Positions 21,598 through 64,000 of a stretch of DNA of 64,000 nucleotides are shown one piece after another. The stretch is from Scyliorhinus canicula (Eukaryota): contig NC_052146.1 of assembly GCF_902713615.1 (NCBI RefSeq), positions 71,009,238 through 71,073,237 on the forward strand, written 5' to 3'. The position numbers were made by a program, and so were the translations under genes. The notes under the pieces were generated by a model. The model was given only the letters and a program-made list of their open reading frames with translations. It searched no databases and was not told where the DNA came from. Position 1 is the first letter of the stretch. Every line of letters begins with the position of its first letter.

Positions 21598-21907
21598 GAA
21601 CAGCTGTATCATGAAAATCTAATAGTGAGTTGAAACTTAAGTACCAATAGCCACATTGTTGCATTTTAATATGATTTTCGGATGCATTAAGGTAAATTAA
21701 TAAACAATGATCTTTCATTGAACGCCGATAATATTCCGAATGAAGAGCTGTTTAAAAGTACAAGTCATAAACGCGCGAAATTCCCGCCGGCATGGCCACT
21801 TCCTTAAATTTCTGAAACACAATTAATTTCTATTGTTTTTTCACATGAAAGAAATGAATCGGAATGAAAAAGATCAATCTGAACTGGGTCGAGAGCAGTA
21901 TCCCGGG

Positions 21908-22230
21908 TCACATACAGCTGGATCTGGAGATGGTTGCTCTAAACGGAGTTGCCTGAATCTCGTGCTTGACCAGACAGGAGTAAAGCTCGTGTGAGTTCCA
22001 CTCTGAGGCTGACAGAGTCAGATAGCTGCTCACACTGAACGTGTTGTCCGCCTCCTGCTGGATCCGACTGGTCTCAACCCCATTCCCTCTGACACTGCCG
22101 TCTACAGTCCATTCAATCTCCGCAGCTCCCGGGTTAAACCCGCTCACCAAACACACCAGGGTCGCCGTGTCCTTCGCTGCGATTTGATCCCATGAAGGCG
22201 GAAGGACGGAGACAGATGGCTTCTGAGGAT
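21908..22230 (-). CDS. IGLC: Ig light chain constant exon, cluster 1 (type II/lambda)
   Basis: Acceptor tttctttccaaaacag, then (N)PQKPSVSVLPPSWDQIAAKDTATLVCLVSGFNPGAAEIEWTVDGSVRGNGVETSRIQQEADNTFSVSSYLTLSASEWNSHELYSCLVKHEIQATPFRATISRSSCM*. C1-set Cys/Trp/Cys and penultimate Cys are present. It closely resembles shark lambda-type C domains as I recall them, and is phase-compatible with the VJ exon. Confidence 0.96.
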
Positions 22231-29014: not shown

Positions 29015-29925
29015 GGGGTGGTTTGTGTATGTGGGGGTGTGTGATTTAGATGCGTGGCGGTATGTGTGTTGGTTAGTGTGTATGGGGATGGGGTGTTTTT
29101 GTTTTCAGGAGGGCTGCTTTGTGTGTGGGGGGGGATGGGGTGGTGTACGTGTGTGTGGGAATGGGGGTGTATTTACAGAATTTACAGTGCGGAAGGAGGC
29201 TATTTGGCCCATTGGGTCTGCACCAGTCCTCGGAAAGAGCATCCTACTTAAGCCCACCCCATCTAACCTTTTTGGACACTAAGGGCAATTTTACATGGTC
29301 AATCCACCTAACCTGCACATCGTTGGACTGTGGGAGGAAACTGGAGCACCTGGAGTAAACCCACGCACACACGGGGAAAACTCCGCACACACAGTGACCC
29401 AACCCAATGACCCACATCTGGGACCCTTGAGCTGTGAAGCAATTGTGCTCGCCACTGTGCTACCGTGCTGTCCACAGTGTGGGGGTGTGGGGTGGTGGTG
29501 GTTTGTGTGGGGGGAGATGTGGTGGTTTGTGTATGTTTGGGGATGGAGTTGGTTTGTGTGTGGGCTGATGGGGTGGTTTGTGTGTACAGGGAGGGAGTCG
29601 TTTGCATCTGTGGGGACAATAATGGTTTGTGTGTGCGCGGATGGGTGTGGTTTATGTGTATATGGGGTGGGGTGGTTCGTATGTGGGGCATAGAGATGGT
29701 TTGGGGATGTGCGCATGGGCTGGTTTCTGTGATGGGGGGATAGCGATGGGTTGGGTGTGTAGGAATGGGATGGTTTCTGTGTAGGGGGAAAGGGATGGCT
29801 TGGGTGTGTAGTTGTGCAGGGATGGGGTGGTTCCTGTGTGTGGGGCTGTGGGCTGGGGAGGTTCATGTGGTGTGGGGATGGAGGTAGTTTGTGTTTGTTG
29901 CGATAGGGTGTGTTTTTGGGAAAGA
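27610..29925 (+). repeat. G-rich minisatellite, unit approximately GTGTGTGGGGATGGGGTGGTTT
   Basis: Arrays at about 27610-28160, 28460-29165 and 29475-29925. They generate the spurious C/G/V/W-rich ORFs in the track. Confidence 0.92.
29171..29473 (-). mobile_element. HE1-type V-SINE within the G-rich satellite
   Basis: Full head, V-domain and tail. Confidence 0.88.
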
Positions 29926-31649: not shown

Positions 31650-34165
31650 AACTTCCGGTGACAGCGGGCGGGAGGCAGCTGCACATTGGAGGGCTCCCAT
31701 TCTGGAACGGCATTTTTGGGGTTCAACACCTGGTCTCAGGGGCAACGGAGGCGGCAAAAGCAGGGAGAAGGCACAGTGAAGGGAAATGTCGAAAATAAGT
31801 AAAAGAACAGCCGTGAAAAAAGCAGCTGAACGTCCGTCGGGGAGTGGAAAGGTCACCGCGGGGAGGGCAAGAAAAGCGGAGGCTGGGGCACCAGGGGAGG
31901 GCGCATTGCCCACGGCTGAAGAAATGACTAGGGTGATGGCTGTGGAACTTGAAAGGCACTTCACAAAACACATGGAGGGGATGAGGAAGGAGATGGGGGC
32001 GGTATTGAAAGTGCTGGTGGAGGAGGCAATTGCCCCGGTGAGGGCGGCGGTATTGAGCGCAGTGGCAGAGGTGCGGGAGCAAGGTGAGGTGCTGAAGGAA
32101 GTGGAGGAGACATTATTGCAGCACAGTGATCAACTTACCTCGATGTGGAAGGAGATGCGGAAGGTGATAGAGATCAACAAGGGTCTGCGAGCCAAAATGG
32201 ACGACTTGGAAAACAGATCCAGGTGACAGAATCTGAGGATTGTGGGTCTGCCCAAAGGAATAGAAGGCCCGAGGCTGACTGAGTATTTTGCCGCGATGTT
32301 GGCGAAGCTATTGGGGGCGGGTGATGATCCCTCCCGATATGAACTGGAACGGGCTCATTGGTCGTGGATCCCTGTACCAAAGGAGAGTGAGCCACCAAGA
32401 GTAGTGACTCTGTGTTTTCATATGTACAGTGTGAAGGAGAAGGTCCTGTGCTTGGCAAAGCAGAAGCGGGTGGTGCAGTGGGCTGGAGCTGGTATATGCA
32501 TATATCAGAGCTTTGCAGTGGAGCTGGCGAGGAGGCGGGCTGCCTTCAGGCGGGAGAAGAAGGCACTGTACATCGGTAAGTTGCAGTGTGGCATAGTATA
32601 CCCAGCTAAGTTGTGGGTGACCTACAAATCCAAGGACTTTTATTTTGGCATGGTGGAAGCAGCGAAGGAGTTTGCGAAGGCAGAAGGACTGTTGCTGAAT
32701 TGAGAAATGGTCATGCACCGAAGTAGCCTCATTTAGCTGTATTTTTTCACTGCGTGCTGGTGTATGTGCTAAATGAACCAACATTGTATGTATTTGGACA
32801 AGGGACGAGATGGGACTTTCACTTGCAATGATGGATCTTTTGGGCTTGGGTGTGTATGCGGAGTTGGTGTACTAAAGGTGACTTCTTGGATGTCCTGGGA
32901 CTGGGCAAGGGGGAAAGTAACCCACGTGGAGGCCTCCATGCTGGTCGGTTTAAGCTGGCCAGTGAATGGGAGTGAGGTGGGGGGAGGGGCTGCGGCCATC
33001 GGAGCCTGGCAGAACAGGTTCCGATTGTTGCACGTTTTACTGTGGTTGTAAAACGCGTTTATTGGAGTGTATTAACACGCCTCCGTATTCGACGTGTGCT
33101 TAACACTACTAGGCTCTGTTCTATGTATTTATTCAGCTCTGGAGTCGCCAGTTGCCGTATAGACAACGTCACAAGTATTCCAAGGTCAAGTTCAAAGTAA
33201 TAAAGACGATACACCGATTAGTAAGGTTCAAACGATCAATATTTATTATACAGTTATAATAAATATTCATACACACACTAAGAGACTAAGCTATAACTAA
33301 ACTTAAGTGAACAGAATACTTATCTAACAGGAACAGGCAAGGTCAGAGAACGAGGCCTTCGTCCTGGTCTTGTACTGCAGCCTTCAGCAAGCGTTCTGGT
33401 ACTGGGGGTCTAGTGGGCTTGGATCGCGTAGCGAGCGTTGAACTTACGGTTTCGGCGGCTGGTGCTCAACGGCTGGAGTCAGGATGCAAGATGTCTATCA
33501 GGGCCGGAGCACGGGTTTAACAGACCGGGCTATGTGGGGAATTTGCCTTTATACCCCTCTCTAATGTCCTTGCCCCCTTCTAGGCGGGCTCTACCTTTCG
33601 GTACCGATTGGAGCGTTTCCAAACGGTTACCTTCGAAATCCTCCAATGCGAGGGCCTTCCTCGATGTTGGGGGGTGGTTTCGATATTCGTTACTCTGGTG
33701 CCATCCTGTCTGCACAACCAATTAAGTGTTACATTGAGATGGAAATGTTGCCATTGTTCGTGCCTGGATCTGGGCTGCCTCATCAGAATGCTAAGCGCTT
33801 TGCCATTAACACCTTTGGCTTGGAGATCTTGCACCTGGCCAGAAACTGGTTTGCTGCTTGCAAAATGCTAATTAGTTGAGAGCAGACTGTCTGCTCACAC
33901 TAATCAGGCTTTTCCTTCTGTCTTCCATTTTACTTTGGCTCAGTGTCCATTTTGCGTGGCCAGCATGGCTACACGATGAGTCTAGGCAGGGTGGAAAGTT
34001 GGGGGGGGAAGGAATAGAGTTTTGGGGGAGGAGTTTTAGAAGAGGAAGTGGAGGGGAGGAGTCGGGGAGGGGAGGGGTTTCAAGTCATGGGTATCATTTA
34101 CGGTACTCTTTCGGGGATTGTATGGCATTGAATGTTAGGAGGAGGAGGGGTGGACTCTATAGGTC
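31650..34165 (+). mobile_element. L1/Tx1-like LINE (D): 5' end and near-intact ORF1, interrupted by a solo LTR, 3' part lost
   Basis: Starts AACTTCCGG. ORF1 31786-32703 is broken only by TGA at 32224-32226 (probable CGA>TGA in SRRQNLRIVGLP). Confidence 0.88.
33026..33973 (-). mobile_element. Solo LTR (948 bp), same family as 55797-56743
   Basis: Reverse-complement match end to end, with an exact 4-bp TSD CGAT (33022-33025 and 33974-33977). Interrupts an L1. Confidence 0.94.
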
Positions 34166-38753: not shown

Positions 38754-39080
38754 GGGGCAGCACGGTAGCATAGTGGTTAGCATCAATGCTTCACAGCTCC
38801 AGGGTCCCAGGTTCGGTTCCCGGCTGGGTCACTGTCTGTGCGGAGTCTGCACGTCCTCCCCGTGTGTGCGTGGGTTTCCTCCGGGTGCTCCGGTTTCCTC
38901 CCACAGTCCAAAGATGTGCGGGTTAGGTGGATTGGCCATGCTAAATTGCCCGTAGTGTAAGGTTAAGGGGGAAGTTGTTGGGTTGCGGGTATAGGTGAGT
39001 TTGAGTAGGGTGATCATTGCTCGGCACAACATCGAGGGCCGAAGGGCCTGTTCTGTGCTGTACTGTTCTAAACTGTTCTA
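38754..39080 (+). mobile_element. HE1-type V-SINE
   Basis: Near-identical to 43471-43798. Confidence 0.9.
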
Positions 39081-43470: not shown

Positions 43471-43798
43471 GGCCTCACGGTAGCATGGTGGTTAGCATCA
43501 ATGCTTCACAGCTCCAGTGGTCCCAGGTTCGATTCCCGGCTGGGTCACTGTCTGTGTGGAGTCTGCACGTCCTCCCCGTGTGTGCGTGGGTTTCCTCCGG
43601 GTGCTCCGGTTTCCTCCCACAGTCCAAAGATGTGCGGGTTAGGTGGATTGGCCATGCTAATTGCCCGTAGTGTAAGGTTAATGGGGGGATTGTTGGGTTA
43701 CGGGTATACGGGTTACGTGGGTTTAAGTAGGGTGATGATTGCTCGGCACAACATCGAGGGCCGAAGGGCCTGTTCTGTGCTGTACTGTTCTATGTTCT
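43471..43798 (+). mobile_element. HE1-type V-SINE inserted in the Gmr1 5' LTR
   Basis: TSD AAATGG (43467 and 43799); absent from the 3' LTR. Confidence 0.92.
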
Positions 43799-44385
43799 AA
43801 ATGGGTGTTTTTATAGAATAACTGTAGTGGGTGTACTTTACGAAATGGGTGTTTATTACTGCAGTGATGTCAGAGTGTGGGTGGAGCTGGGTTGCCTGTC
43901 TGCTTACTTTCGTTTTTGAGCAGGTTGCTACAGAGTGAGTTTTTAGTTTCATTTTCAGAGAGAAGAGCTGCAGTGAAAGCCAGCAGATGTGCATGGATCT
44001 CTTGACAAGCTAAAGAATATTCATATTCATTGATTTCAAAACGATAACTGCTCTCATTAGAGAAGGTAAACCTGATTTCTGTGTTAAAAGGGTTTTTTGT
44101 CTTATGGATGTTGTTTGGGTATTTATTAAGGATTACCTAGCGTTGTATTCTTTGGGGGTTTTATTTGAATTGATGGTTGCTAAGATGTTCACTGTATTTT
44201 TTTAAAGGTTAACTTGAGTTCATAGAATAAACATTGTTTTGCTTTTAAAATACTGTTAGATGTCTGCTGCACCACACCTGTCAAGTGAGCCGTGTGCTTC
44301 CCATACCACAATCTATTAAAAATTGTGAGTCAGGTGAACTCCATGATACACTTTGGGGTTCTCTAAACCCTGGCCCATAACAAAT

Positions 44386-44403
44386 TGGGGCCTCGTCCAG
44401 TAT
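44386..44403 (+). promoter_or_regulatory. Primer binding site, tRNA-Pro type (degenerate)
   Basis: TGGGGCCTCGTCCAGTAT, 15/18 match to the tRNA-Pro PBS TGGGGGCTCGTCCGGGAT, 3 nt after the 5' LTR. Confidence 0.8.
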
Positions 44404-44516
44404 AAAAGTAGATCTATTGGATTGGTTTAGTGAACGTAAAGACAGTGAGGGTGAGGATATTGTGGTTGCTTTTCAGGTGTGGTATTTCAGTTGAAGTAGG
44501 GGGTGCATTGAGGACA

Positions 44517-46217
44517 GTGGCTCTTTCAGAGGCTCTGAAGTTTTTGGGGTTGGAGACGGTCACACGCAGTACCTTATGGACAGAGACAAAAGGAAACTGT
44601 TAGATTTGGCGAAAACACTGCAGTTAACATTACCTGACAAAATGCGAAAAGATGAGATAATTATGGCGGTGGCTAAGCATTTAAAGTTGCCTGAGATACA
44701 GTTTGACTCATTGGAAATGGCAAAAATTCAGTTACAAATAAAACAAATGGAACATGAGAAAGAATTAAAGCAGCTTGTATATGAAAGCGATAGAGAGGAA
44801 AAAGAAAGCGAGAGAGAGGAAAAAGAAAAGGAGAGAGAAGAAAGGCGAAAAGAAAGAATAGCCCTAGCAGAACAAAAAAAAGAGAAAGGGAGATACAGAT
44901 CAGGGATAAAGATAAAGAGAGAGAGTTCGAACTTCAGAAAATGGCCATGAAACATCACAGCCAGTTAAAATTGGCAGACGTAAAGGGAAACGTACAGTTG
45001 GATGATAGCGATGAGGATAGCGAAAGAGCGTCGCAGTTGAAGGCTTGATGGGGATCTATTTAAATATGTCCAAGCATTGCCACGGTTTGATCAGAAAGAG
45101 GTAGAGCCTTTTTCATTTCATTTGAGAAGGTAGCTAAACAACTGAAGTGGCCACAAGACATGTGGGTATTACTGATTCAAACAAAACTGGTGGTCGGGCT
45201 AGTGAAGTGTTTGCATAATTACCAGAGGAGATATCTGGGACGTATGAGGAGGTGTAAAAGTCCATCTTAGGTGCATATGAACTAGTGCCTAAAGCCTCCA
45301 GACAAAGGTTTCGAAATTTAAGGAAAACATTTGGTCAAACGTCCATGGAGTTTGAAAGGCTCAAACAGAGTAATTTTGAGAGATCGATAAGGGCTTTCAA
45401 AATAGACCAAACGTATGAAGCTCTCGGAGAAATTATGCTTTTGGAGGAGTTTAAAAATTCAATTCCTGATGTAGTGAGAACTCATGTGGAAGGGCCGAAG
45501 GTTAAAACTGCGAGGTTAGCAGCAGAAATGGCAGATGATTATGAATTAGTTCATAAATCAAACATTGGTTTCCGACATCAGTTTCAGCCTGTGAGGGTTA
45601 GAAACTGGGGACATGAGAAATACTTAAGTGGTAAAGGTGAAGGTGATCTGATTGGAGATAATAAGGGGAGTGTACCTCAGACTAAAAAAGAAATCCAGAA
45701 GGGTGGAAAAGAAATGAAAACTTTCAAATGTTTTCACTGTAATAAACTCGGCCATGTAAAATCACAGTGTTGGTGGTTGAAGAAAAGCACTGGGAAGGTT
45801 GATGTGACAAAACAGGATAAGACAGAGGGGTTTCTTAAAGTGGGAAAGGAAAGCCCAAGTGAAGCGAAGGAGGTGCAAAAGATTTTACAACCTGATCAAG
45901 AGGTGATTGATAAGAAGGTGCCAGATCTCTTTAAAGAATTTATTTGTGTGGGTAAAGTTTACTCATGTGTATCAGGAGGAGCAGGTAAAGAAGTCACAAT
46001 TTTAAGTGTTACGGGAGCTAGTCAATCTTTAATGGTAAGAGATGAGGAGTTATGTAGTTTGGGACGAATATTGCCAGTAAAGGTGGGAATATGTGGAATT
46101 CTGGGTGAGTGGAGTAGTGTTCCATTATATAAGGTAAGGTTGGAAAGTCTAGTGAAGAGTAGTAAAGTGGCAGTAGGAGAACCTATCTTGTCCAGGAATA
46201 CAGTTTATCTTGGGTAA
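44517..46217 (+). pseudogene. Gmr1-like gag and protease (frameshifted)
   Basis: ORF pieces 44576-44950 and 45285-46217 carry a coiled-coil, LEEFKNSIP, a CCHC knuckle and a decayed protease site L(SV)TGASQSL. Confidence 0.82.
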
Positions 46218-46597
46218 TGATACAGCTGGATCGCAAGTGGGTGTGTTGCCTACTGTGGTTGATAAGCCAATGGAAAATTAGACAACTGAAGTGTTGAAGG
46301 ACGAGTATCCTGGGATTTTTCCGAATTGTGTAGTGACAACGTCGCAAAGTCACAGGTTACGACAAGAGGAGAAATCAAAAAGTGAAAATGAAGTGTAAGC
46401 GTAATTATCAGAAACGATTTTTGATCAGATGGTAGCAAAAGAAGAAGAACAGGTGGAGGATGAGGCGGATATTTCTAGTTCAGGAAAATTGGCGGAGTTA
46501 CAACAAAAAGATATAGAAATAAACAGATGTATCAGAAACATATACAGAAGAGGAATCTGAGTGTGTACCAGAGTGTTATTACGGTAAAAATGATGCC

Positions 46598-47677
46598 TTG
46601 ATGAGAAAATGGAAACCTTTACAGATGCAGGTGGATGAAAAGTGGGCAGAAGTTCATCAAGTGGTATTGCCGGTAGGGTATAGAAAGAAGGTGTTGCGAG
46701 TTGCACATGAGATACCAGTGGGAGGTCATTTGGAAGTATGGAAAACTCAAGCTAAATTACAAAAACATTTTTATTGGTCGGCACTGCATAAAGATGTAGT
46801 AAAATTTTGTCAATCATGTCACACATGTCAAGTAATAGGAAAACCTCAAGCAGTGATAAAACCAGCGCCCTTAATACTCATTCCAGCATTTAGGAACCTT
46901 TTACAAGAGTCATAATTGATTGCGTCGGACAACTTCCTAAAACGAAACTGGGAATCAATATCTTTTGACTATAATGGATGTGTCTACTACGTTTCCAGAG
47001 GCAGTCCCAGTGCATAATATTACAGCTAAAATGATTGTGGAGGAGTTACTTAAATTCTTTGCTGGATATGGACTACCCACAGAAATACAATCGGATCAAG
47101 GATCAAATTTATCTCAAGGTTCTTCAAAGAAGTTATGGATAGCTTAGGAATAAAACAATTTAAATCAACTGCATACGATCCAGAATCGAAGAGAGCATTG
47201 GAAAGGTGACATCTGACATTAAAGGCAATGTTGAGGTCTTATTGTCACGATTATCCAGAGGATTGGGATAAAGGAATTCCATTTGTACTGTTTGCAATTA
47301 GGGTTGCACCGAATGAGTCAACCAAATTCAGTCCTTTTGAACTAATTTTTGGCCATGAGATAAGAGGACCACTTAAATTGATTAAGGAAAAATTGGTGAG
47401 TGAGAAATCAGAAATTACATTATTGGATTACGTGTCAAAATTTAGGGAACGAATAAATAGAGCAGATGAATTGGCTAGACAACATTTAGAAGTTGCACAA
47501 AATATGATGGAACGGGTAGTGGACAAGAAATCCAAAGTTCGTACTTTTGCCAGTGGAGATAGAGTTTTAGTGTTGTTACCAGTGGTAGGTGAGCCTTCAA
47601 AAGCAAGGTTTTGTGGACCTTATGAGATTGAAACGAAATTAAGTGAGGTGAATTATGTGGTTAAAAACACGAGATAG
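46598..47677 (+). pseudogene. Gmr1-like integrase (frameshifted), upstream of RT
   Basis: HEIPVGGH...CQSCHTC zinc-binding motif, EIQSDQGSN, WDKGIPFVLFAIR, FCGPYEI. Confidence 0.85.
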
Positions 47678-47979
47678 AAGGAAGACTCACCGAGTGTGTC
47701 ATGTGAATATGCTTCAAAGGTATTTTGAAAGGGAAGGAGAGAAAAAGGAGGAGGTTTTAATGATTCAAACTCAAAGTTACGAACCAAATCCAGATGACTG
47801 TGAATTTGACATACCTCAACTTAAATTGGAAAATAAGGATGTTCTTAAAAATTGGGATAAATTGTTGAGTTAACTTCCAGAGGAAAAACGGACTGACTAA
47901 CAGAGTTATTGATATCACATGGACAAGTTTGTAGAGGTAAATTGGGAAGTACTAAAATGGCTTTCCATTATGTAGATGT

Positions 47980-48850
47980 GGGAAATGCTGTTCCAATCAA
48001 ACAACAGCCAAAGATTTAACCCTTTAAAATTGGCACAGGTTAACAAAGAGATTGAGAGCATGCTTAAAAATGGCATAATTGAAGTGGATTGCAGCTAATG
48101 GAGCTCACCCATAGTGATGGTCCCGAAACCAGACGGTACCCAACGGTTGTGTTTGGACTATAGAAAGGTTAATGAAGTTACAAGAACGGACTCTTATCCT
48201 ATCCCACGTTTGGACGATTGCATTTGAGAAAGTGGGACAATCAGCTTTTATTTCCAATCTGGATTTACTTAAAGGTTACTGGCAGGTACCTTTATCCGAA
48301 AGGGCGAACGAGATTTCAGCTTTTGTGACTCCAGATGGTATATACCAATTCAAAGTTATGCCATTTGGCATGAAAAGCACCCCAGCCATATTTCAACGGT
48401 TAACTAACAAAGTCATTTCAGGATTACCCAATTGGGCGGTATACATCGGCGAGCTGGTAATTTTCAGCCAGACATGGAAAGAGCATTTGAAACATCTGAT
48501 GGAGTTATTCGATCGGGTTCAGGAGGCGGGTTTGGTGGTAAACCTAGCGAAAAGTGAACTTGGAACAGCCCAAGTCACTTTCCTTGGCCATACAATCGGA
48601 CAGGGTCGAATGGTCACACGGGATGTGAAAGTAACAGTTATTGAGGAGTTCCCAATACCCTCATCACAAAGGAAAATAATGCGATTTCTTGGCATGAGTG
48701 GATTTTATCAAACATTTGTGCAAAGATTTTGTAGCGTGATTGCTCCACTGATGGACTTGCTCAGTAAGCGTAACAATTCCAGTGGACAACAGAATTTCAA
48801 CAGGCATTTTACTGCCTGAAAGCTGTGATGACCAATGCTCCTGTGTTGGA
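47980..48850 (+). pseudogene. Gmr1-like reverse transcriptase; RNase H apparently missing
   Basis: WSSPIVMVPKPDGTQRLCLDYRKVN, LDLLKGYWQVP, YQFKVMPFGMK, decayed YIDD (YIGE), FLGMSGFY. Only about 280 nt remain before the PPT. Confidence 0.85.
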
Positions 48851-50489
48851 GAATTGCATGGGACTCTGATCAGATTGAACTAAAGTATCTGACTTTAAAG
48901 AGAAATGCCGAGGTGTAGAGAAATGGAGGGATCGCACAGAGACCTTCTTGTTCAAAGAGACTGTCAATCAAGAGGGATTCCAGTTGGAAGAAGAAGAAAA
49001 AATGCACTATATTATTATACCTGTTTGCATCTGTTGTTTTTTTAAACGAAAAAGTATATTTACTTTTCTTAAAGGATAGTGAAAAGGTGAAAAATGAAAC
49101 CATCTTGAAGTTGATGGTTTATTTTTTTGGGGGGGGGCAGGTGTCATGTGAGAGTACCTTAAAAAATGGGTGCTTTTATAGAATAACTGTAGTGGGTGTA
49201 CCTTTATGAAATGGCTGTTTATTATTGCAGTGATATCTGAGTGTGGGTGAAGCTGGGCTGTCTGTCTGCTTTACTTTCTTTTTTGAGCAAGCTGCTATAG
49301 AGTGAGTTTTTAGTTTCGTTTTCAGAGAGAAGAGCTGCAGTGAAAGCCAGCAGATGTGCATGGATCTCTCGACAAGCTAAGGAGTGATCATTTGGGTGAT
49401 TTCAAAGGGGTAACTGCTCTTATTAGAGAACTTAAACCTGATCTCTGTGTTTAAAGGGTATTTTGTCTTAGGGATGTTGTTTGGGAATTTATTAAGGATT
49501 TCTTAGTGTTATATACTTTGGGGGTTTATTTGAATTAATGGTTGCCAAGATGTCCACTGTATATTTTTAAAAGGTTAACTTGAATTCATAGAATAAACAT
49601 TGTTTTGCTTTGACAAACAGTGTTATATGTCTGCTGCACCACACCTGTCGAGTGGGCCGTGTGCTCCCCATACCACAATCTATTAAAAGTTGTGGGTCAG
49701 ATGAACTCCATGATACACTTTGGTGTTCTCTAAACCCTGGCCCATAACAAATGGCATATGATTTAAATGGAGAAATATTGCAGAACTTTGGGTATCATGG
49801 TACACTGAACCACAGAAGTTAGTATGCAGGTACAGCAAGTGATGAGGAAGGCAAATGAGATGGTTCCATTTATTGCAAGAAGATTAGGATATTGAAGGAG
49901 AGATGCTTTGATATGGTTGCACAAGACCACGTCTTGTGTGATATGTACAGTTTGGATCAGCTTATTTCAGAACGGACATTTGTTTTAGAATCAGTGCAGA
50001 GGACGTCCACTTGACTGATTCCTGGGATGGGGTGGGTGGATGAGGGGGATGTTGTTGGTTGGTTGCTGATGAGGAAAGGTTGGACAATTGCACCTGTATT
50101 CATGAGAGCTTAAAAGATGGCAAGGTGATCGTATTGAGGGGAGTTGATGGTGAAAGTATGTTTCTTTTGTGAGAAAGAGTAGAAATAAGGCACACTGTTT
50201 AAAAAAAGCGCTGTTCCATTTAATACTGAGTTGAGAATACTATTCTCTCAGAAGGTCATGAATCTGTGAAACGTTATTCCCAAGAGAATTCAGGAGGCAG
50301 AGGTAGAGAGATTCTTGACGAACAACAGAGGTAGAAAGATTTGTGACTAACATGACAGCCTCGCGGTATTGGGGATAGATGCACTGTGAAGTTCAGATCA
50401 CAACAGCTGCAGTCAGATGAGCCATGAACTTCTCAAATGACAGAGCAGGCTCAATTGGTCGAATGGGGCTACTCCTGCTCCTAATCAAT

Positions 50490-52745: not shown

Positions 52746-53160
52746 AAGTAGAAACTTCATCAGGACAAAATATTAATTTGAAGTGATGATCAGTGAGGGT
52801 AAAATATCGACGCAGGACACCGAGGCTACATCCCCTGGTTTTCTTCCAATACGTTCATGTTTTTTTTTACATCAACCTGGGAGAATAGATGCCGATTGGT
52901 TTTGATGTCCCATCCAAACTATGGCTCAGTCTCCAGGTCAGGCTAAATACAATAAAGGCAATATTGTAAATATATGTAAATTCGTGTATGTGACCCGAAA
53001 ACAAAAGGTTATGTAACAGCATTTCTTTTGTTTCCAGACCATTCGGCATTCATCAATTTAATTGCAAATACGTGTAGTTCGGCAGTGAGGAAGGAGCTGA
53101 AGGGGTTATGGAGCGTATTGGGGGGGGTGGACTGGTGGAGGTTTGGGAGGCCCAGAATGA

Positions 53161-54177
53161 AGAAATTGTCATAATTCCACATGGGATTCAGTGCTCCCCT
53201 TTGCACTTATGTTCATAAGGAACACTGTCTCCACATCTACAGGATACACACCACATACACTCATGACCGGACGCCCTATGAAAGGTACAGAATTCCTTTT
53301 AGGACTGGACATGACAAGCCCCGAAGTGACGGCCCTCACACATGAAAAGGCAGTTAAAGATCTAGTTGAGACTGTGAGGTCTGCACAGATCGCAGCCGCA
53401 GTCCAGCTAGGGAAACGCCGACAGCAACGTACTGCCTGTTTCAATAAGACCGTACACACCACAGAATTCCAGGTTGGGCAACAGGTAATGTTATCTGTTT
53501 ATAACCCCAGCAGTTTTTTGGCTCCAAAATATTCCGGTCCCTACTCAATTTCGGACAAAATTAGCCCCTCCGTTTACAGGATAAAGTATCCTAATGGGAA
53601 GACCGCGTGGTTCCATATAAACCAGTTAAAGGCATATGGAACACAGGCCAACCATGCTCACCATGTCCTGCTGGATGCAGCAGAACACTTCACCCCGCCC
53701 ACCAGAGACACTTTTCCACCATCCCCCTCACAGACCAGTTCATCCACGGACTCGCCCACGACTCCGCCCACAGACCACGACAGACCACGCCCCGACACGC
53801 CCACAAGCTGCCACAGCAGAGACAGCAGGACTGACACTGACTCTGAAGACAGCGACAGCACACAGCCATACAGCCCACACTGCACCAGCTACGACCCCGA
53901 CTCCAGTGACCCCATGGAAGTCACCTACCTCAAATATCCAGAACCACCACCCGACCCCGACTACCCCGACAACACACTCGACACTACACAATGGCACAGG
54001 GACAATTCCTACAGACTTGTCCGCAATGATGAAAGTGACCCCCGGTCACACAATTCCAAAGTTTCATGCCTGATCCACACAAGGGTGTGGGATCCGGGAG
54101 AGCAGGACGACGCAATGTCTGAATCCCGACACGGCAACCCCTTTGTGACCCTGTTCACAGAGGCAGAATCAAAGTGA
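53161..54177 (+). CDS. Retroviral-type integrase, C-terminal half plus about 175-aa extension (5' truncated)
   Basis: WDSVLPFALMFIRNTVSTSTGYTPHTLMTGRPM (end of the IN core) and PKYSGPY...YRI...WFHINQLKAY (GPY/F-type C-terminal domain), then a P/T/S/D-rich tail. No internal stop. Confidence 0.88.
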   Translation, partial: RNCHNSTWDSVLPFALMFIRNTVSTSTGYTPHTLMTGRPMKGTEFLLGLDMTSPEVTALTHEKAVKDLVETVRSAQIAAAVQLGKRRQQRTACFNKTVHTTEFQVGQQVMLSVYNPSSFLAPKYSGPYSISDKISPSVYRIKYPNGKTAWFHINQLKAYGTQANHAHHVLLDAAEHFTPPTRDTFPPSPSQTSSSTDSPTTPPTDHDRPRPDTPTSCHSRDSRTDTDSEDSDSTQPYSPHCTSYDPDSSDPMEVTYLKYPEPPPDPDYPDNTLDTTQWHRDNSYRLVRNDESDPRSHNSKVSCLIHTRVWDPGEQDDAMSESRHGNPFVTLFTEAESK

Positions 54178-55109
54178 GGTGTCCAGATGATGTAAAATAG
54201 GAATCGTTTGAGGGAAACGATGTCCTTTCTGATGGAACCTGCACGTATGTTTGTCTTCATTTTATGTTTGTTTGTTTCCAGGATTGTAAATTGTTCAGCT
54301 GGAGGATGGACATCTTCTTTTCAGCTGAAAAGATTGTGACCACCTCACATACACGTTAGCTTGTCCGCAGATACCTTTGAGAACTTCGGTTTGATTGGAG
54401 ATCTTTTCCAAAGTTGTAAGGCCACACGCCAAATAGTTTATCTGCAGATATCTCTGAGAACTTCAGTGATGTCCTCAGTTGGAGCATCTTGGCTCCCTTG
54501 GTTTTTAGGTGCCCCTTATTCGGCGAAATAGAGGCTGCAAGTCATGATGAACACATTCGTACCCGTTTTTTCCAGGTTACTCAGGCAGTGGACAAACGGC
54601 ACTGAGGACCCGCCCTGTCTGAGAACCAACCCTTGGTCAGCCAAGCTCGGGTATGGCACAGCACGCCCTACCCGGGGATTCCATCCAACTCATACCCGTC
54701 GCGGCCCATACGCAACTCATTCGGATGTTTGTTTCAAAGTTGTTTTCATTTACGTTAGGTAGCCCTTCGGCCGCCATCCCACATGCTATTTACATCCGGG
54801 AACATTCGGATGGTAAATCAGCAAAGCCTGCGAGACGGCTCGCAGAAGGAAGGATTGTTAGGTGTATGCTGGTCTTCAAATTCGCTTTTTGAAAAAAAAA
54901 ATGAGGGGAGTCACAGGGTGTGACTTAGCCAGTCATTTTAAAGGGTCAATTGGGTTTTGAAAGACAGATGCACTAACAAGTAAAGGTCTTAAACTGTGTA
55001 TTGACAGATACTGTGCTTGATCCCAAAGGTTTCAAAGGACGAGACAGAGGTCGAAGCCAGGATTGTCAATACCGGAGGAAGAAGGAAGAGAAAGAAGAAG
55101 AACAGCAAA

Positions 55110-55466
55110 ATGATGGAAACCCACCTATTGTTTCTAAATGTCATGTGTATATGTGTGGAAACAAGACACGTTTCCCCCACAACCCCCACCGTAAATGTTT
55201 CAATTACAGCAAACCCCCAGTGCTCAGCTCTGATCAGCGAGGTTCAGACCTGGTGCACTAAATTCATGACGTGGTACTCCATGTCCTATATAATCGAATC
55301 ACTGTTGGTGATCGCGATCCTCATCATACTAGTGCAGACCCTCAGGTTGAGGAAATGGAAGAGGAGAGCCTCTCGTTCCAGCACCTCACCCATCTATAGA
55401 GTTCAATCCCCCATCTTCGGATTCCACCAAACCCCTCAACCCCTCACTGATTACAACACTCTGTAA
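55110..55466 (+). CDS. Small predicted type I membrane protein (118 aa) in the env position of the LTR element
   Basis: ATGATGG start. Hydrophobic N-terminus (HLLFLNVMCICV), NVS sequon, C38/C49 pair, TM YIIESLLVIAILIILVQTL, polybasic RLRKWKRR and C-terminal YNTL. Branch point CACTAAC (54971) and acceptor ttgacag (55007) lie upstream. Confidence 0.65.
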   Translation: MMETHLLFLNVMCICVETRHVSPTTPTVNVSITANPQCSALISEVQTWCTKFMTWYSMSYIIESLLVIAILIILVQTLRLRKWKRRASRSSTSPIYRVQSPIFGFHQTPQPLTDYNTL

Positions 55467-55796
55467 ATAAAAAATTCAGCCATGTATTATATTGTTCCAT
55501 ACTCGACTGCCGAGTTGGGAAGTGTGATGTTGTGGTGTGAATGGTTAAGGTTTTAGAGTGATGAAATGTTAAGTTAAGGTTAAGGTTAATAGTGATAGGT
55601 AGAGGTTCCCAGTTGTAGTAATGCATGTCCCTTTGACATAGGGCCAAGTAGAAATGTTAGTTAAAAATTTTTCTCTTCTTCCCATAGTTTAAGAATAGAG
55701 TAGAACAGGAACTGGCAAGAGGTCAGAACACAAGGAAGGCAACGTACATAGGTGATCCTTCACAATAGTATGATTGTGAGGATCACAAGGAGGGAA

Positions 55797-56743
55797 TGTA
55801 GCCATGCTGGCCACGCAAAATGGACACTGAGCCAAACTAAAATGGAAGACAGAAGGAAAAGCCTGTTTAGTGAGAACAGACAGCCTGCTCTCAACTAATT
55901 AGCATTTTGCAAGCAGCAAACCAGTTTTCTGGCCAGGTGCAGATCTCCAAGCCAAAGGTGTTAATGGCAAAGCGCTTAACATTCTGATGAGGCAGCCCAG
56001 ATCCAGGCACACACAATGGCAACATTTCCATCTCAATGTAACACTTAATTGGTTGTGCAAACAAGATGGCACCAGAGTAACGAATATCGAAACCACCCCC
56101 CAACATCGAAGGAAGCCCCCGCATTGGAGGATTTCGAAGGTAGCCGTTTGGAAACGCTCCAATCGGTACCGAAAGGTAGAGCCCGCCTAGAAGGGGGCAA
56201 GGACATTAGAGAGGGGTATAAAGGCAAATTCCCCACAGAGCCCGGTCTGTTAAACTCGTGCTCCGGCTCTGACTGACATCTTGCATCCTGACTCCAGCCG
56301 TTGAGCACCAGCCGCCGAAACCGTAAGTTCAACGCTCGCTACGCGATCCAAGCCCACTAGACCCCAAAGTACCAGAACGCTTGCTGAAGGCTGCAGTACA
56401 AGACCAGGACGAAGGCCTCGTTCTCTGACCTTGCCTGTTCCTGTTAGATAAGTATTCTGTTCACTTAAGTTTAGTTATAGCTTAGTCTCTTAGTGTGCAT
56501 GAGTATTTATTATAACTGTATAATAAATATTGATCGTTTGAACTTTACTAATCGGTGTATCGTCTTTATTACTTTGAACTTGACCTTGGAATACTTGTGA
56601 CGTTGTCTATACGGCAACTGGCGACTCCAGAGCTAAATAATTACATACAACAGAGCCTAGTAGTGTTAAGCACACGTCGAACTCGGAGGCGTGTTAATAC
56701 ACTCCAATAAACGCGTTTTACAACCACAGTAAAACGTGCAACA
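55797..56743 (+). mobile_element. 3' LTR (947 bp) of the retrovirus-like element
   Basis: TGT...ACA termini directly after the PPT. CCAAT 56159, TATAAA 56217, donor CC|GTAAGT 56323, AATAAA 56522. Homologous over its full length to 33026-33973. Confidence 0.92.
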
Positions 56744-58156
56744 CCCCCCCCCCCACACTAAGGCACTATCCATCTTTTTTTATATTAAAAAGGACAAGAA
56801 TCCGGAGCATTGTGGATTGTACCATCTGATATTGCAATTGTATGTAGATTGAAGTTGATGGTGAAGCTGTTGGCTTTGCGAATTGAGGACTGCGGTCCGG
56901 GGTGATAGGTGAGGACCAAGTGGGGTTTGTGAAAGGGGCTCAGTTGTCAGCAAATGTGTCGAATCTGCTTAATGCTGAATATGATGCCTCTGGAGGGCAG
57001 GAGGTGGAGGGGAGAGGCAATGGACGCAGAGAAGGATGGAGCCGGGCGGAGTTGGAATATTTGTGGGAGGTGCTGGGGTGGTTTGGGTCTGGGCAGCGTT
57101 TTGTGACCTGGGTCCAGTTCCTGTACAAAGCACTGGTCACAATTGTGTGGATGAACCGAATGAGTGTGGGACATTTTGGGCTGCATTGGGGGATAAGGCA
57201 GCAGTGCCCACTCTCCACATTGCTTTTTACTTTGACTATAGAGCCATTGGCAATGGTGCTTAGAGCATTGAAGGATTGGAAAGTGATTGCGCATGGGGGT
57301 ATGAAGCATAGGGTTTTGTTGTAGATGAACGACGTGCTGTAATATATATCTGGCCCATTGGGTGGCATCGAGAGCATTATGGGGATTTTGGAGGACTTTG
57401 GCTGGTTCTTTGCGTACAAGTTGAACACAGGAAACAGTGTGGTGATCCCGATTGAGGCTAGAGGGCAGGAGAGGAGGTTAGGGGGCTGCCGTTCAAGGTA
57501 GTGGGGACGAGCTTCAAATCCTTGGGCATCCAGGTCATGCAAGGTGGGGCGCAGTTGCTCATGGTAAATTTGACTCGTCTGGTCGAACAGATGAAGGGGA
57601 ACTTCAAGAGATGGGGTGTGCTGCAAAGATAATGGTGCTGCCAATGTTCCTGTTCATACTTCAGAATCTCACGATCTTTGTCCTGAAGTTGTGCTTTAAA
57701 AATGTTAATCCGCTGCCCTCTGGCTTTGTTTGGGCAGAGAAGACCCCGTGGGAAAAAGGGCTTTTTTGGAGCTGGATTGAGGAGGGGGCGGTGGGGGGGG
57801 GGGGGTGTTGCAGAGTAATCTTTATTAGTGTCACATAGGCTTACATTAAACCTGCAATGAAGTTACTGTGAAAAAACCCCAGTCACCACAATCCGGCGCC
57901 TGTTTGGATACACTGAGGGAGTATTCAGAATGTCCAATTCACCTAACACGCACATCTTTCGGGACTTGTGGGAGGACACCAGAGAAAACGGGGCAGTAAA
58001 CATCACCATGGTGAGGGAATGGGTAGTGGGGCAGGGATTGGCATGGTTGGGGGGTGGGGTTTGGAGGCGATTCTTGTGGATGCACGAGCATAAGGGCATT
58101 GTTAACAGTGGCTCTGCTGCACTCGCCGGCCAGGTACTCCATGCACCCAGTGGTGA

Positions 58157-58926: not shown

Positions 58927-60506
58927 GTGTTGTCGGCCTTGAGTGATTGGGGACAGTAGAGGAAGCATTTTGGACTAGAGGGCACTTCGGCGTGGGCACT
59001 GAACTGCGACAATTATAAGGTTGCACCGGAGGGGCTGGATGCAAGGTTTCAGGGTGGCAGCAGGCAGGGATTCAGTGATTTGGTGACCTGTTTGTAAGGG
59101 GCAGTTTCACAAAATTGGAGGCCCTGGAGGAAGAGTATGAGGTGCCCAGGTGGAACAACTTCAGGCCCCTGTAGGTTCAGGGTTTTGTGAAGAGAGATGT
59201 ACTGTCCTTCCCTGGGTCACCGCCCTTGGGATTTCAGCACAAGGTGCTGTCAAAGGAGGAGATAGGGGAGCGGACGGTGTCTACAAGGAGCTAATGGATT
59301 GGGGGTGGGGGTGGTGGAGGATACACAGTCAAAGTGGGGGGAGGAGCTGGGTGGAGACCTGTACACCGGGACGTGGTTTGCGGCCCTGCAGAGGGTCAAT
59401 GCATCCTCTTTGTGTGCGAGGTTAAGCCTTATCGGTTTAAAGTACTTCACTGGGCGCATATGACAGTAGCGCAGATGAGTACGTTTTTTGAGGGGGAGAG
59501 GGTAGCTGCGAGCAGTGCATGGAGAGGCCTGCAAATCATGACCACAGGTTTGGGGCATGTCTGAAGCTAAATGGGTTCTGCCAGTGATTTGCCGATGTAA
59601 TGTCCGCAGAGCTGGGGTGAAGGTGGCCCTAGTCCAGAGGTAATGCTCTTCGGAAGACCCGGGAATCCAGGGGGCCAGAGAGGCCGACGTATTGGCCTCT
59701 GCCTCCCTTATAGCCCAGAGGCGGAACTTACTTGGATGGAGGGACTCGGAACCGCTATAATCGGGGGAGGGGGGTGAGTCATGTGGTAGAATTACTGAGG
59801 CTGTAGAAGGTCACGTTCGTCTTGAGGGGGTCAGTTGTGGCGTTCGCCCGGAGGTAGAAGCCGTTCGTTGACTTCTTTAAGGAGGATTGAGGAGTCAGCA
59901 AAAGGCGAGGGGGTGGGGAGGGGGTTAAAATAGGGAAGACAGTATAGGAGGAGGGGGCGAGAGTGGGGACCAGGTGGGGGAGTGGATGTTGGTTATTTAT
60001 AATGCTGTATAATTTTGCTTCGGCTTCGGTTTGTTTTTTTTATGAAAATGCCTCAATAAAATGTTTTTGAAGAAGGAAACACATGTAGCTGCCGTTTAGC
60101 TATTATTATCAGAGAAAGAGTTCCTCAGGCGAGTACATCAGAGATGCAGGCATGTGCAGGTTACAGGACAGTGGCTGATCAAACAGCTCATTGGCTAATA
60201 TGCTACACAATTGAATATGGATATTATTGGGATTGTGACGAATCACCAATCACGCGCACAAACTAAGGAAGGATTGAACCCGCGCATTGTTTCTGGTAAA
60301 ATATTGCGAAGAGCTTTTAATCTCGCTTTAATAAACCACTTTAACTTGTGATTGATCTACATGGATGAAACCAATTTCAACAAAATTCTTGCCTAATTCC
60401 TTGGCTAGCAATCAACACCAGAAAATACGAAATGCCTGGACATAAGAACATAAGGAATAGGAGCAGGATAATGGATTTTGGCCTTTCGAGACTGTTGCGC
60501 TATTCT

Positions 60507-60712
60507 GCGTGGGTTTCCTCTGGGTGCTCCGGTTTCCACCCACAGTCCAAAGACGTGCAGATTAGGTGGATTGGCCATGATAAACTGCCCTCAGTGACCA
60601 AAAAAGGGCAGATGGGGTTATTGGGTTACGGGGATCGGGTGGAAGTGAGGGCTTAAGCGGGTTGCTGCAGACTCGATGGGCCAAATAGCCTCCTTCTGCA
60701 CTGTATGTTCCA
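60507..60712 (+). mobile_element. 5'-truncated V-SINE
   Basis: V-domain and tail; absent at the homologous copy-1 site (about 14037). Confidence 0.85.
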
Positions 60713-61782
60713 TGTTTATCACTGACCATCCACCTCAACTCCACCTTCCTGTGCTAGCCCCAAATTCTAGGGCTTTTTGCCTACTACTGATGTTAGCTCA
60801 ACTGGCTAGCAATTCCCCACATGATGTATTCCTCCTTTTTTCTAATTACATGGTTGTGCCTGCTCTGTGGCAGTCCTTGGAAATTCTAGGATCTATGGAT
60901 TTTGGAAGCTCGATATCATTGTATCTCTACAGCTACCTCGCTCAAAAAGCCGAACATGCAGGTCGTCACAATTCATTCAGATTAATTTCAGCTGTGCTAC
61001 TTACTAACATATACTGATCCCTTTAATGCATTCATTTTTGCTAAAGCATTGGTTCCTGATCATTTTTGGCGTGTTTTCCTAATGGAGATTCATCTTCATT
61101 GAAGATAGGATCAGGAGGAGGCCTTGTGGCCCTTCGAGCCTGCTCCGCCATTTATCACGAAAATGGCTGATCATTGAACTCAATCGCCTAATCCTCCTTT
61201 CTCCCTGGAGCCTTTGATCACATTCGCCCAAGTGATATATCTAGCCGCCTCTTCAATATATTCAATGTTTCAGCATCAACTATAGCTAACAGATAGCTAG
61301 AATCTGTTTAATGTCTCTGCTATTTTCTTAATTCCATTATGATTTCACTATCTTTTGCCTTAATATTTCCACATTCATAAATCCCTGCCTCTTGATATAT
61401 ATTTCGAAAATCTTAGCATCTGTATTTGTGTCTCGTGTTCATCCACTCTTTCCTCTTACCGTTCGAATTTTTTGGTCCTCGTTTCTGAATTCTAAAATAA
61501 ACTCTTAATCATCGACCATATAATTGTTTTGGAAACACGAACACACAGTCACACGGACGGGCGCACACACACACTCTCACACAGACATACTTTCACTGTT
61601 TGGACAGGGTGAACAGATATTTCACCGACTCCATAACAGTGGCGGAATTGTTTTCCAGGCAGCCTTGTGCACTCTTTATTGCGTGATCCTGAATAATACC
61701 TGAAACGTATTAGATTTGACTGATATTACAAAAGCAATAAATGATACCAAAACTCATATTGTATTTGATCTCAGACCAGTTA

Positions 61783-61788
61783 TTTATT
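61783..61788 (-). terminator. Polyadenylation signal, cluster 2
   Basis: Homologous AATAAA in the same context (...cagaccagttatttattgaacagctg). Confidence 0.75.
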
Positions 61789-62101
61789 GAACAGCTGCAT
61801 CATGAAAATCTAATAGTGGGTTGAAACTTAAGTACCAATGGCCACATTGTTGCATTTTAAGTATAATTTTCGGATGCACAAAGGTAAAATAATAAACAAT
61901 GATCTTTCATTGAACACCCATAATATTCCAATTGAAGAGCCATTCAAAAGAACAAGTCGCAAAAGAACAAGAAATTCCCGCCGGCATGGCCACTTTCTTA
62001 AATTTCTGAAACACAATTAATTTCTACCGTTTTGTCACATGAAAGAAATGAATAGGAATGAAAAAGATCCTTCTGGACTGGGTCGAGAGCAGTTTCCCGG
62101 A

Positions 62102-62424
62102 TCACATACAGCTGGATCTGGAGATGGTTGCTCTAAACGGGGTTGCCTGAATCTCGTGTTTGACCAGACAGGAGTAAAGCTCGTGTGAGTTCCACTCTGA
62201 TGCTGACAGAGTCAGATAGCTGCTCACACTGAACGTGTTGTCCGCCTGCTGCTGGATCCGACTGGTCTCAACCCCATTCCCTCTGACACTGCCGTCTACA
62301 GTCCATTCAATCTCCGCAGCTCCCGGGTTAAACCCGCTCACCAAACACACCAGGGTCGCCGTGTTCTTGGCTGTGATTTGATCCGATGAAGGCGGAAGGA
62401 CGGAGACAGATGGCTTCTGAGGAT
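62102..62424 (-). CDS. IGLC: Ig light chain constant exon, cluster 2 (type II/lambda)
   Basis: 323-nt paralog of 21908-22230 with 8 substitutions. Reads PQKPSVSVLPPSSDQITAKNTATLVC...IQQQADN...SSCM*, with an intact AG acceptor. Confidence 0.96.
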
Positions 62425-64000
62425 CTGCTTTGGAAAGAAACTACGGTTAGTCGTATAAACATTTGATTTGGTTACGCAAGAGATTTCCCGAACCAATAAC
62501 ATTCTAATTCTGGCACTCATTGAGAATAATAAACAAATCCGTTTGTTCATCCGAGGAAGGAGAGAGACCAATGGGATATTTGGGGATAGCAGCAAGGTTA
62601 AGTTTTAATGACTGACTGGAGCTGAACTGAAGTTGATTCTGTTCAATTTAACAAGACAAAGCAACGCTTGTGCATTATGTTTCACAATGTTACCTCTGAA
62701 TCTATTGCTGTATGTTTAGCTTCCCTGTCTTCACATTGAGATGCTGCTTTTCCAGTCTCAGTCAGAAATAGAATTAGACACATTGAACATACAGTAAATT
62801 TATTCCAATGTGCTCCGATTTGATGAGCCGTTGATCAGTTTTGCGTCAGATTTTACGGGAATCTGACCACGCAATCCAGACTGACATTCCAGCGAAGGGA
62901 ATGTGGAAAAGCCGTTCAGACAGCATTTGGATTATAATCAAACCGAGATCCTCTACTGACGAACCTAAATTACTCTGTTACTGGATTGGAGGCAGTGGTG
63001 GAAGACCGTGCTCTCTGCGTGAAAACAGGTTAATGGGTGATTGGTATTTTTGATGTTTGTGGGAAATAGGTGACTGTCACGGTGGGGGAATTTATTATGG
63101 AGATCTCATTGATTAAATATTTTTACAAACGCTCTGGTATGTTTCGGATTCAGGCCATGAAAAAAATATACTTAATTATGTATGATTCTTGACCTTAAAT
63201 GTTGTGTTTTGTAGGAGGAGCTAACGGGGGAACCCTTGACTGCAACAGTGTAAAACTGGCGATAAATGAACGGAATGTTTTACACTGAGGTCAGTGGAAA
63301 TAGAGCGCGGGAGAAATATAAACACCTTTGCGGACCCGACATCAGCCGTTTAACATTATCGGTCAAGTTAAGCTGCACACTGACATTGCAGGAATGGAAG
63401 ATTTATTTTTATATATCTATTCCAGCAAAGATCAGCGCTGAGATTTTGGGGGAGTTTGGTTCCATTATTAAAGTCGAAAACGCAATAATTAAATATGAGC
63501 AACACTATTACTGCAACAGAATTGTTAATTTAAGGCACATTCTGATTTCTCTGATTATTATGCATCGGAATAACCAACAACTCTGATCAGATTTTCACAG
63601 CAGAAATAACAAGATATAATAATATATGCTCAATACACAGAACAATCTGACAATATTAATAGTTCGAACACAAAGTCAGAAAACAGAACAAAGAACAGTA
63701 CTGCACAGGAGCATGTCCTTCGGCCCTCCAAGCCTGTACCGGTCATCATACCATCCTTGGCCAAAGCCCTCAGTATTTCCTAGTGCCCTATCCCTCAAAA
63801 CCTAATCGAGAACTTAATAGTGTCACTGTTTACATGATCACATCTCAGTTTTAAAAATACTCTGCGCTGACATGAAACTTGGCAAGTTCGTTACAGAAAG
63901 GGTCAGGGAGGGATTCGCTATTTTCATTGCAAACACGCATACGCTTCATGAGAGACACGTTATTCCTGGATAACTGGACGAATTCCGAGCTTTGCGGAGG

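Follow-up and report, generated by a model that had tools for sequence, protein, structure and literature searches.

A gene for a predicted small membrane protein, kept by purifying selection at the env position of a foamy/loki-type LTR element of Scyliorhinus

A 64,000-nt stretch of the genome of the catshark Scyliorhinus canicula, hereafter the window, carries a real gene for a small predicted membrane protein, under selection and previously undescribed, at the env position of a foamy/loki-type LTR element. The gene, a 118-aa ORF (P0001), is maintained under purifying selection, and on its sequence the product is best read as a new small type I glycoprotein filling the place of Env. We put at roughly 40% the proposal that this membrane glycoprotein, predicted to have about 100 residues, anchors capsids at the cell surface and, replacing Env, aids their hand-over to a neighbouring (germ) cell. 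The intact ORF between pol and the polypurine tract (PPT) that a first-pass annotation of the window had reported was found as claimed (Table 1). No description of it turned up in the literature searched, a body of text to which subscription papers and Repbase/Dfam entries are external.

Table 1. Features of the element, its ORF and a related LTR in the window
Feature	Position	Strand	Basis or remarks
Solo LTR, same family	33026..33973	-	4-bp target-site duplication
3' end of pol	53170..54177	+	integrase C-terminal half, SH3-like domain, long Pro/Ser/Thr/Asp tail
Non-coding spacer from pol stop to ORF, 932 nt	54178..55109	+	4 of the 12 best-supported indels here; no TATA-like box
Candidate branch point and splice acceptor	54971..55007	+	heptamer starts 54971, AG ends 55007
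118-aa ORF P0001, predicted type I membrane glycoprotein	55110..55466	+	sequence, selection, homologs
Predicted signal peptide, aa 1-18	55110..55163	+	hydrophobic core in window copy and 3/3 homologs with the region; sequence poorly conserved
N-glycosylation sequon NVS	55194..55202	+	NVS kept in 3/4 homologs; P0008 without
Variable Ser/Thr/Pro-rich stalk, including non-conserved C38	55203..55247	+	identities to homologs 4/15, 0/15, 1/15, 0/4
Conserved membrane-proximal helix with C49 and W48, W55, Y56, S57, S59, Y60	55248..55289	+	8-12/14 identities
Predicted transmembrane helix, invariant Glu63	55290..55343	+	hydropathy, alignment, model
Juxtamembrane basic cluster	55344..55376	+	identities 8-10 of 10-11
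Cytoplasmic tail with Pro, conserved Tyr96, non-conserved YNTL	55377..55463	+	predicted disordered, pLDDT <50
Polypurine tract	55787..55796	+	sequence
3' LTR, 947 bp, TG...CA	55797..56743	+	TATAAA 56217, donor GT 56323, AATAAA 56522, poly(A) site 56545

Selection on the ORF and its predicted product

Differences between copies of the element were collected from four runs aligned to 53150-56760 and four, one of them in common, aligned to 54960-55520. Among the best-supported 40 of the 113 differences over 54960-55520, 39 lay within the ORF, with 26 at third and two at second codon positions; 25 of the 39 were silent and none created a stop. This corresponds to a pN/pS of 0.17-0.22 (p <3e-6), from counts over related copies in which each site was classed singly. 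Silent changes made up 17 of 22 over codons 22-87 (pN/pS 0.11), CpG sites accounted for 5 of the 25, and the remaining five frames gave 0-14 silent changes. For the integrase ORF, which served as control, 7 of the 13 differences listed were silent. Coding sequence makes up 37% of 53150-56760, and none of the best-supported 12 of 68 indels fell in it (p 0.004). The four indel rows over 54960-55520 comprised a 2-nt loss at 55200, a 1-nt loss at 55204 and, shortly after the stop codon, two rows at 55469; since the losses at 55200 and 55204 were each carried by 15 of 70 reads, they are probably one in-frame loss. One contig spanning 54996-55312 contains three gap letters. The first-pass annotation had asked whether the ORF is disrupted in most copies or evolves neutrally, and what we see instead is a constrained protein, without stops among the differences listed and with the best-supported indels outside coding sequence.

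A HMMER scan of 1.84 billion representatives with P0001 gave five hits, from which P0009 (E 3.6e-4) was dropped as a repetitive protein with 12 repetitive stretches. The other four are homologs, all RefSeq protein models, two from S. canicula (P0005, P0007) and two from S. torazame (P0006, P0008), and are 43-61% identical to the window protein. Each carries an unrelated N-terminal extension, which would fit gene models that splice into an exon of the element. Mapping RefSeq-model exon junctions onto the window gave no alignment better than shuffles. No homolog was among the three candidates from a word-index search with P0001, viral contigs gave no loci with the five-sequence alignment as query, and the sole locus from metagenome contigs (L001) was dismissed as coincidental, given the strand context of a bacterial gene there. 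The first-pass annotation had spoken of an env-less lineage of sharks: a selected membrane-protein gene in the env slot stands, with the lineage demonstrated for Scyliorhinus only and not for sharks at large.

The motifs that had been listed for the window copy, namely NVS at residues 29-31, Cys 38 and 49, KFMTWYSMSY, RLRKWKRR and the terminal YNTL, are all present, with Cys at positions 13, 15, 38 and 49. The 118-aa protein has a single strong TM, and the top 19-residue hydropathy (2.48) covers residues 57-75. Assuming cleavage after residue 18, a site predicted by eye, the ectodomain would be about 42 residues long. Hydrophobicity at the N-terminus is modest in the window copy, with a 9-mer at 2.6 vs 3.1-3.7 in three homologs; a hydrophobic N-terminal core followed by the sequon occurs in 4/4 sequences with this region, the topology being predicted. 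When the 1.6-kb pol-to-LTR region was resampled 2000 times with a Markov model, no ORF of at least 80 aa combined a TM with a basic cluster.

Across all five sequences the invariant positions are W48, C49, W55, Y56, S57, S59, Y60, E63, L66, A69, V75, T77, R79 and the basic cluster, and C49 is the sole invariant Cys of the ectodomain. W83 is also invariant, with no Tyr directly after the TM, and Y96 is kept in the 3/3 homologs that retain that part. All four homologs have one Cys near the inner end of the TM (column 72 or 73) that is missing from the window copy. The stalk is hydrophilic in most homologs. Two features that the first-pass annotation had offered did not hold for the family. The terminal YxxL is seen in neither of the two homologs reaching the end, and the C38 of a proposed p10-like cystine loop lies in the least conserved segment and occurs in 0/4 homologs. 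C38 is usual in the window's nearest subfamily, as the 12 differences of the main contig of run X3 all lie elsewhere; the loop, judged from the alignment, is therefore a subfamily trait and not the design of the family.

An AlphaFold model built on the five-sequence alignment (pTM 0.32) predicts one helix over residues 36-90 with disordered ends, at pLDDT 83-90 across residues 51-80 and low confidence around 38. C38 and C49 would sit three turns apart on one helix face, an arrangement that would fit inter-chain bonds and not a loop. The protein is probably a disulfide-linked oligomer. Invariant polar residues gather on that helix face (p 0.006-0.024, for a pattern chosen after alignment), and the same face test with all invariant residues gave p 0.12-0.22. 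The best 11-mers of the tail reach moments of 0.43-0.65 and are mostly basic and hydrophilic; the tail is Pro-rich, and no clear amphipathic helix was found in it. No MGxxxS/T myristoylation motif is present in the window copy or in the 3/3 homologs with this N-terminus.

Profile and structure searches returned no family. The five-sequence profile had no PDB match at E up to 10, Foldseek found no match to the AlphaFold model, and every Atlas feature look-alike scored <0.9. Pfam gave no significant family; adenovirus E3A, K1, TMEM156 and GP19K appeared below cut-offs (E 0.014-0.8), and we rejected these hints as reflecting TM composition.

Host gene models also draw exons for a TM and tail from the element gene. 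P0008 (XP_072365112.1) is a HEPACAM2-like isoform of S. torazame whose end (residues ~343-454) has the TM, the basic cluster and the Tyr motif of the element. This is possibly an exonisation by which an Ig-domain protein of the host gains another way of being anchored in the membrane.

The element, its splice signals and its transcripts

The copy in the window is 5'-truncated at ~53170, inside sequence judged by eye to be LINE-like, and its gag and reverse transcriptase (RT) are for this reason missing from the 64 kb. The pol remnant matches Pfam SH3_Tf2-1 (E 2e-7), and its integrase part is 77% identical over 128 aa to the S. torazame integrase P0004, in an alignment that begins at 53170; two of 970 candidates were integrase homologs, both from S. 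torazame. P0004 retains the integrase core, and its placement is a ranking within the PDB and not a tree, with foamy virus (PFV) at 8e-40, Ty3 at 1e-27 and orthoretroviral entries at 5e-11 or weaker. P0004 is named after NYNRIN, a synonym of CGIN1. By sequence the element is a multicopy LTR element of foamy/loki type, a label kept at that breadth because the copy is without RT; members of the family, in reads and contigs aligned to the element, are 85-99% identical. The integrase tail gave 0 of 163 candidates when compared with longer proteins, and P0002 as query found no loci among viral contigs. This tail (53650-54177) runs to ~170 Pro/Ser/Thr/Asp-rich residues, and P0003 has one too. A 145-aa frame at 53636-54073 overlaps it and matches the shifted tail of P0004.

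From pol to the LTR the element spans 1619 nt (~1.6 kb), of which 330 nt separate the ORF from the LTR. As the first-pass annotation had stated, Env features are lacking: neither the ORF nor the spacer holds an env remnant, be it furin site, fusion peptide or heptad repeat, and the nine plus-strand stop-to-stop frames starting in the spacer had no Pfam match. The env-less call rests on this pol-to-LTR stretch of one 5'-truncated copy, and env-bearing relatives are possible.

The solo LTR and the 3' LTR align with 918 matches, 26 mismatches and 7 gap columns. In the 3' LTR, 67 reads of the raw-read run X24 carry a poly(A) end behind 56545. Poly(A) reads stop at this site, which places the donor GT within R, with the transcription start taken from the TATA box. 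R (56248-56545) is ~300 nt long, X24 sense reads accumulate over exactly this interval, and both the donor and the poly(A) signal lie inside it, so that solo LTRs could yield short polyadenylated RNAs. At 55848, 201 reads and the contigs of two further runs exit the LTR into different sequence, which suggests that the family has two variants of U3.

How the ORF would be reached by ribosomes was addressed in the first-pass annotation by a splice from a donor in R to 55008. Two parts of that proposal were borne out. No ATG lies between 56066 and 56499, so that the donor has none upstream of it, and the reading frame does open at the branch point and acceptor. The acceptor text itself contains a TGA (55002-55004), however, and the opening of the frame there is consequently not independent evidence. 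The candidate acceptor is weak (48% pyrimidines, with earlier AGs at 54980 and 54985). Three observations speak for some use of these signals: a purine-rich tract lies behind the acceptor, loose ends of divergent copies keep both the branch-point heptamer and the donor hexamer, and the first ATG after 54968 is that at 55110.

The spliced mRNA itself was not seen in the reads aligned. Its joint is absent from the three joints listed (4718 reads and three contig sets), and no loose end falls at 55008 in the listed 24 of 94. The smallest loose end listed for X24 is supported by 22 reads at a depth of ~590, so a spliced form in this run would be under ~4%. A contig of run X1 (54892-55118) crosses the acceptor unspliced, and in X3 the depth is equal on either side of it (730 vs 742). 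X24 is a poly(A) single-cell library of which ~1/100 of reads were sampled, and the contig runs are taken to be RNA by guess. X24 is the only raw RNA run, and its coverage of the ORF is low on both strands; sense-strand polyadenylated LTR RNA is present in it, the source of which may be any LTR copy. From its sequence signals we consider a splice from the R donor to 55008 plausible, and a minor or tissue-specific use of it still the simplest route to an mRNA. Foamy viruses are described as unique in placing their major donor within R, before the poly(A) signal, where it also suppresses 5' polyadenylation (PMC3694450), and the R donor can thus be explained without any link to the ORF.

Other repeats also lie in the window. 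A second LTR element at 43799-49752 has 591-bp repeats that are 89.8% identical, broken frames and a gag with weak SCAN and zinc-knuckle matches; its integrase precedes RT, an order that we take to be that of Gmr1-like gypsy elements. At 27311-29016, in low-complexity sequence with a strong G skew, a unit of ~855 bp is duplicated in tandem at 97% identity, and a 2.7-kb repeat is present in two copies of 93% identity at 21083-23780 and 61287-64000. A SINE-like repeat of 150-330 bp recurs in many copies (225-780, 8950-9150, 29180-29470, 38755-39080, 43476-43800, 60500-60720), with a core that resembles the shark HE1/V-SINE type.

Possible roles of the protein

Selection among copies of the element implies that the protein aids the element's own multiplication. 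Its predicted signal peptide, sequon and TM would have it act at the cell surface or along the secretory pathway, something needless for an element confined to one cell; that an env-less element keeps such a protein suggests a membrane step in its life cycle. As the slot holds no env, the simplest role would be a pared-down version of what Env does. Foamy virus capsids depend on Env to reach membranes, so an anchor of this kind would be useful. We propose that the signal is cleaved near residue 18 and N29 is glycosylated, that a continuous helix (~47-90) self-pairs via Cys49 and the polar face Y56, S59, E63 and T77, that the basic cluster serves Golgi export or lipid binding, and that a host adaptor or Gag docks at Tyr96. 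The oligomeric anchor would then gather capsids at cell contacts and aid their passage to the neighbour, perhaps via a Tyr96 adaptor. The selection on the ORF, its location between pol and the PPT with no env remnant, the architecture shared by four homologs in two Scyliorhinus species and the precedent of insect sORF2 argue for an Env-slot role. Against transfer, no FAST-type fusion peptide is conserved, the variable stalk carries the sequon, the tail shows no clear amphipathic helix, the aligned reads gave no splice junction and low coverage of the ORF, and even for sORF2 fusion was not reproduced in culture.

A wider version of this proposal, which we regard as somewhat unlikely, is that a vertebrate lineage of foamy/loki type near the retrovirus root swapped Env for a glycoprotein of ~100 residues, unlike FAST fusion peptides, that moves capsids from soma to the shark germ line; it would be to vertebrates what sORF2 is to insects, and would found a new minimal class of fusogen or transfer protein. 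Env is taken to be the means by which a retroelement leaves the cell, and a mini-protein in its slot bears on whether early retroviruses lost env, swapped it or had not yet gained it. As the gene is short, intact and conserved, direct functional testing is feasible.

The same conserved residues can be read in other ways. The protein could be an accessory modulator of host signalling or immunity, loosely a zeta/FcR-gamma decoy, in which a disulfide dimer pairs its membrane Glu with a basic residue of a receptor while Tyr96 binds or diverts SH2 proteins. We consider this unlikely. Cys49, Glu63 and the basic cluster are invariant, Tyr96 is present in all three homologs that have that part, and the TM pattern presumably resembles that of CD3-zeta/FcR-gamma; however, the tail has neither ITAM spacing nor a paired YxxL, no such family appeared in Pfam, the likeness to CD3-zeta was not confirmed by the PDB profile search, and immune modulation would be of little use to an element copying within germ cells. 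It seems quite unlikely that the protein is viroporin-like or a release factor, that is, a small glycosylated, disulfide-linked and acylated oligomer that either forms a pore lined by its polar face or gets rid of a host restriction factor, a build that we would compare with influenza C CM2 or influenza A M2. This would account for invariant polar residues on a single helix face and for the Cys near the inner TM end of all four homologs, but the window copy is without this Cys; Flu_M2, an Atlas look-alike at 0.85 and so a lead only, is below 0.9 and does not return with a homolog query. Improbable, in our estimate, is a true cell-cell fusogen of the FAST class that has converged on a cleaved signal peptide and uses its W-C-x-x-F-x-x-W-Y helix as the membrane-active segment. 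Size, single TM, a ~42-residue ectodomain, the aromatic membrane-proximal helix, the basic cluster and possible palmitoylation all agree with it, and putative FAST segments behind a signal sequence have also been proposed for pistolviruses (PMC12945298). The absence of C38 from all four homologs, the conserved sequon, and the lack of a myristoylation motif and of a clear amphipathic helix in the tail count against it.

Two further accounts concern where the ORF came from. A shrunken env, from which SU and the fusion core were lost internally while signal peptide, membrane-proximal region, TM and tail were kept for budding or as a helper-dependent passenger, would explain the Env-like position and acceptor and a part order like the two ends of Env. 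We judge it highly improbable. There is no Env similarity in Pfam or PDB (Baculo_F, at E 0.16 with one member, is at noise level), the spacer is free of env remnants, just 2-5% of aligned contigs continue into unlike sequence, and a passenger would not give the core pN/pS of 0.11. As a statement about origin it can be compatible with the capsid-anchor role that we prefer. We give virtually no credence to a chance ORF within a neutral 3' region: an ORF of at least 118 aa of any kind did appear in 73 of the 2000 Markov resamples, but chance accounts for neither the codon-position bias, the indel avoidance nor the protein conservation across species.

Comparison with known systems

With the reovirus p10 FAST proteins (PMC7412057, PMC7830690) the catshark protein shares a length of ~100 aa, a short ectodomain, a single membrane pass, an aromatic membrane-proximal region, a basic cluster (5/5 sequences) and possibly a palmitoylated Cys (4/4 homologs, not the window copy). 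FAST proteins have 100-200 aa and an ectodomain of under ~40 residues, against 118 aa and a predicted ~42 residues in the catshark protein. As far as these accounts describe p10, the catshark protein differs in having no conserved cystine noose and no di-cysteine, and in place of the reverse signal anchor of p10 it has a predicted cleaved signal peptide and a sequon. No clear counterpart of the amphipathic endodomain helix of FAST proteins was seen, and the N-terminal myristoylation motif of p14/p15 is absent. We do not file it as a FAST protein, because noose and myristoylation motif are missing and a cleaved signal peptide is predicted instead of the reverse signal anchor.

Fish and shark foamy-like ERVs (PMC5210030, PMC5512871) share with the catshark element a foamy-nearest integrase, an R donor before the poly(A) signal and a 4-bp target-site duplication, the last known here from one solo LTR and made by foamy viruses and gammaretroviruses alike (PMC4422553). 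Accessory ORFs of the teleost elements are likewise under purifying selection, but env is present in them (PMC5210030, PMC5512871), and these accessory genes reportedly have no TM motifs (PMC5210030). The GGGTG of the PPT-LTR border in fish foamy-like ERVs (PMC5210030) is missing in the catshark element, where GGGAA is followed by TG. ERV-Spuma.0-Sca of S. canicula (PMC10699275) has a pol-to-LTR gap of 1486 nt vs 1619 and an LTR of 866-869 vs 947, and by this comparison may be the same lineage or a sister. If it is the same, the element is already known and its gene was overlooked: a 1326-nt 'env CDS' is annotated, Table S4 has no ORF row for it, and the text reports an env domain for a hagfish element only (PMC10699275). 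In lokiretroviruses the integrase groups with CGIN1, and the catshark relative P0004 is named NYNRIN-like; their integrases belong to the same broad type as P0004, which tells against a plain foamy label (PMC7947760). The Env of lokiretroviruses is F-like and has both a furin site and a fusion peptide, unlike the catshark ORF and spacer, and the host classes listed for them include no cartilaginous fish (PMC7947760). An ERV survey that, as described, counted elements only if an Env homolog was present (PMC4422223) would have skipped an element of the catshark type.

The closest parallel to the proposed role is the Env-independent route reported in 2025 in insects (10.1101/2025.03.14.642691), an article in whose text 'shark' and 'cartilaginous' do not occur. 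There, the sORF2 of insect LTR retrotransposons, those of the MDG1 group among them, encodes 63-107 aa, mostly myristoylated and with a ~30-aa ectodomain, and colocalises with capsids where soma meets oocyte; of 22 lepidopteran consensus sequences, 7 have it downstream of pol, and its fusion activity was not reproduced in cell culture (10.1101/2025.03.14.642691). The carriers are Metaviridae of insects that use unspliced RNA, and no signal peptide is mentioned for sORF2. The catshark protein, by contrast, starts with a signal-like segment and bears a sequon, a Cys in its ectodomain and a Glu in its TM; the integrase of its element is of foamy/loki type, and instead of the Tyr that directly follows the TM in sORF2 the protein has the invariant W83. 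Both are short single-pass proteins of env-less LTR elements, encoded in sense orientation and sometimes 3' of pol, with a basic patch after the TM. The insect search covered myristoylated ORFs only and excluded non-myristoylated forms (10.1101/2025.03.14.642691); if the proposed role is true, the mini-protein route would extend to vertebrates and to a signal-peptide, glycosylated design that this search would miss.
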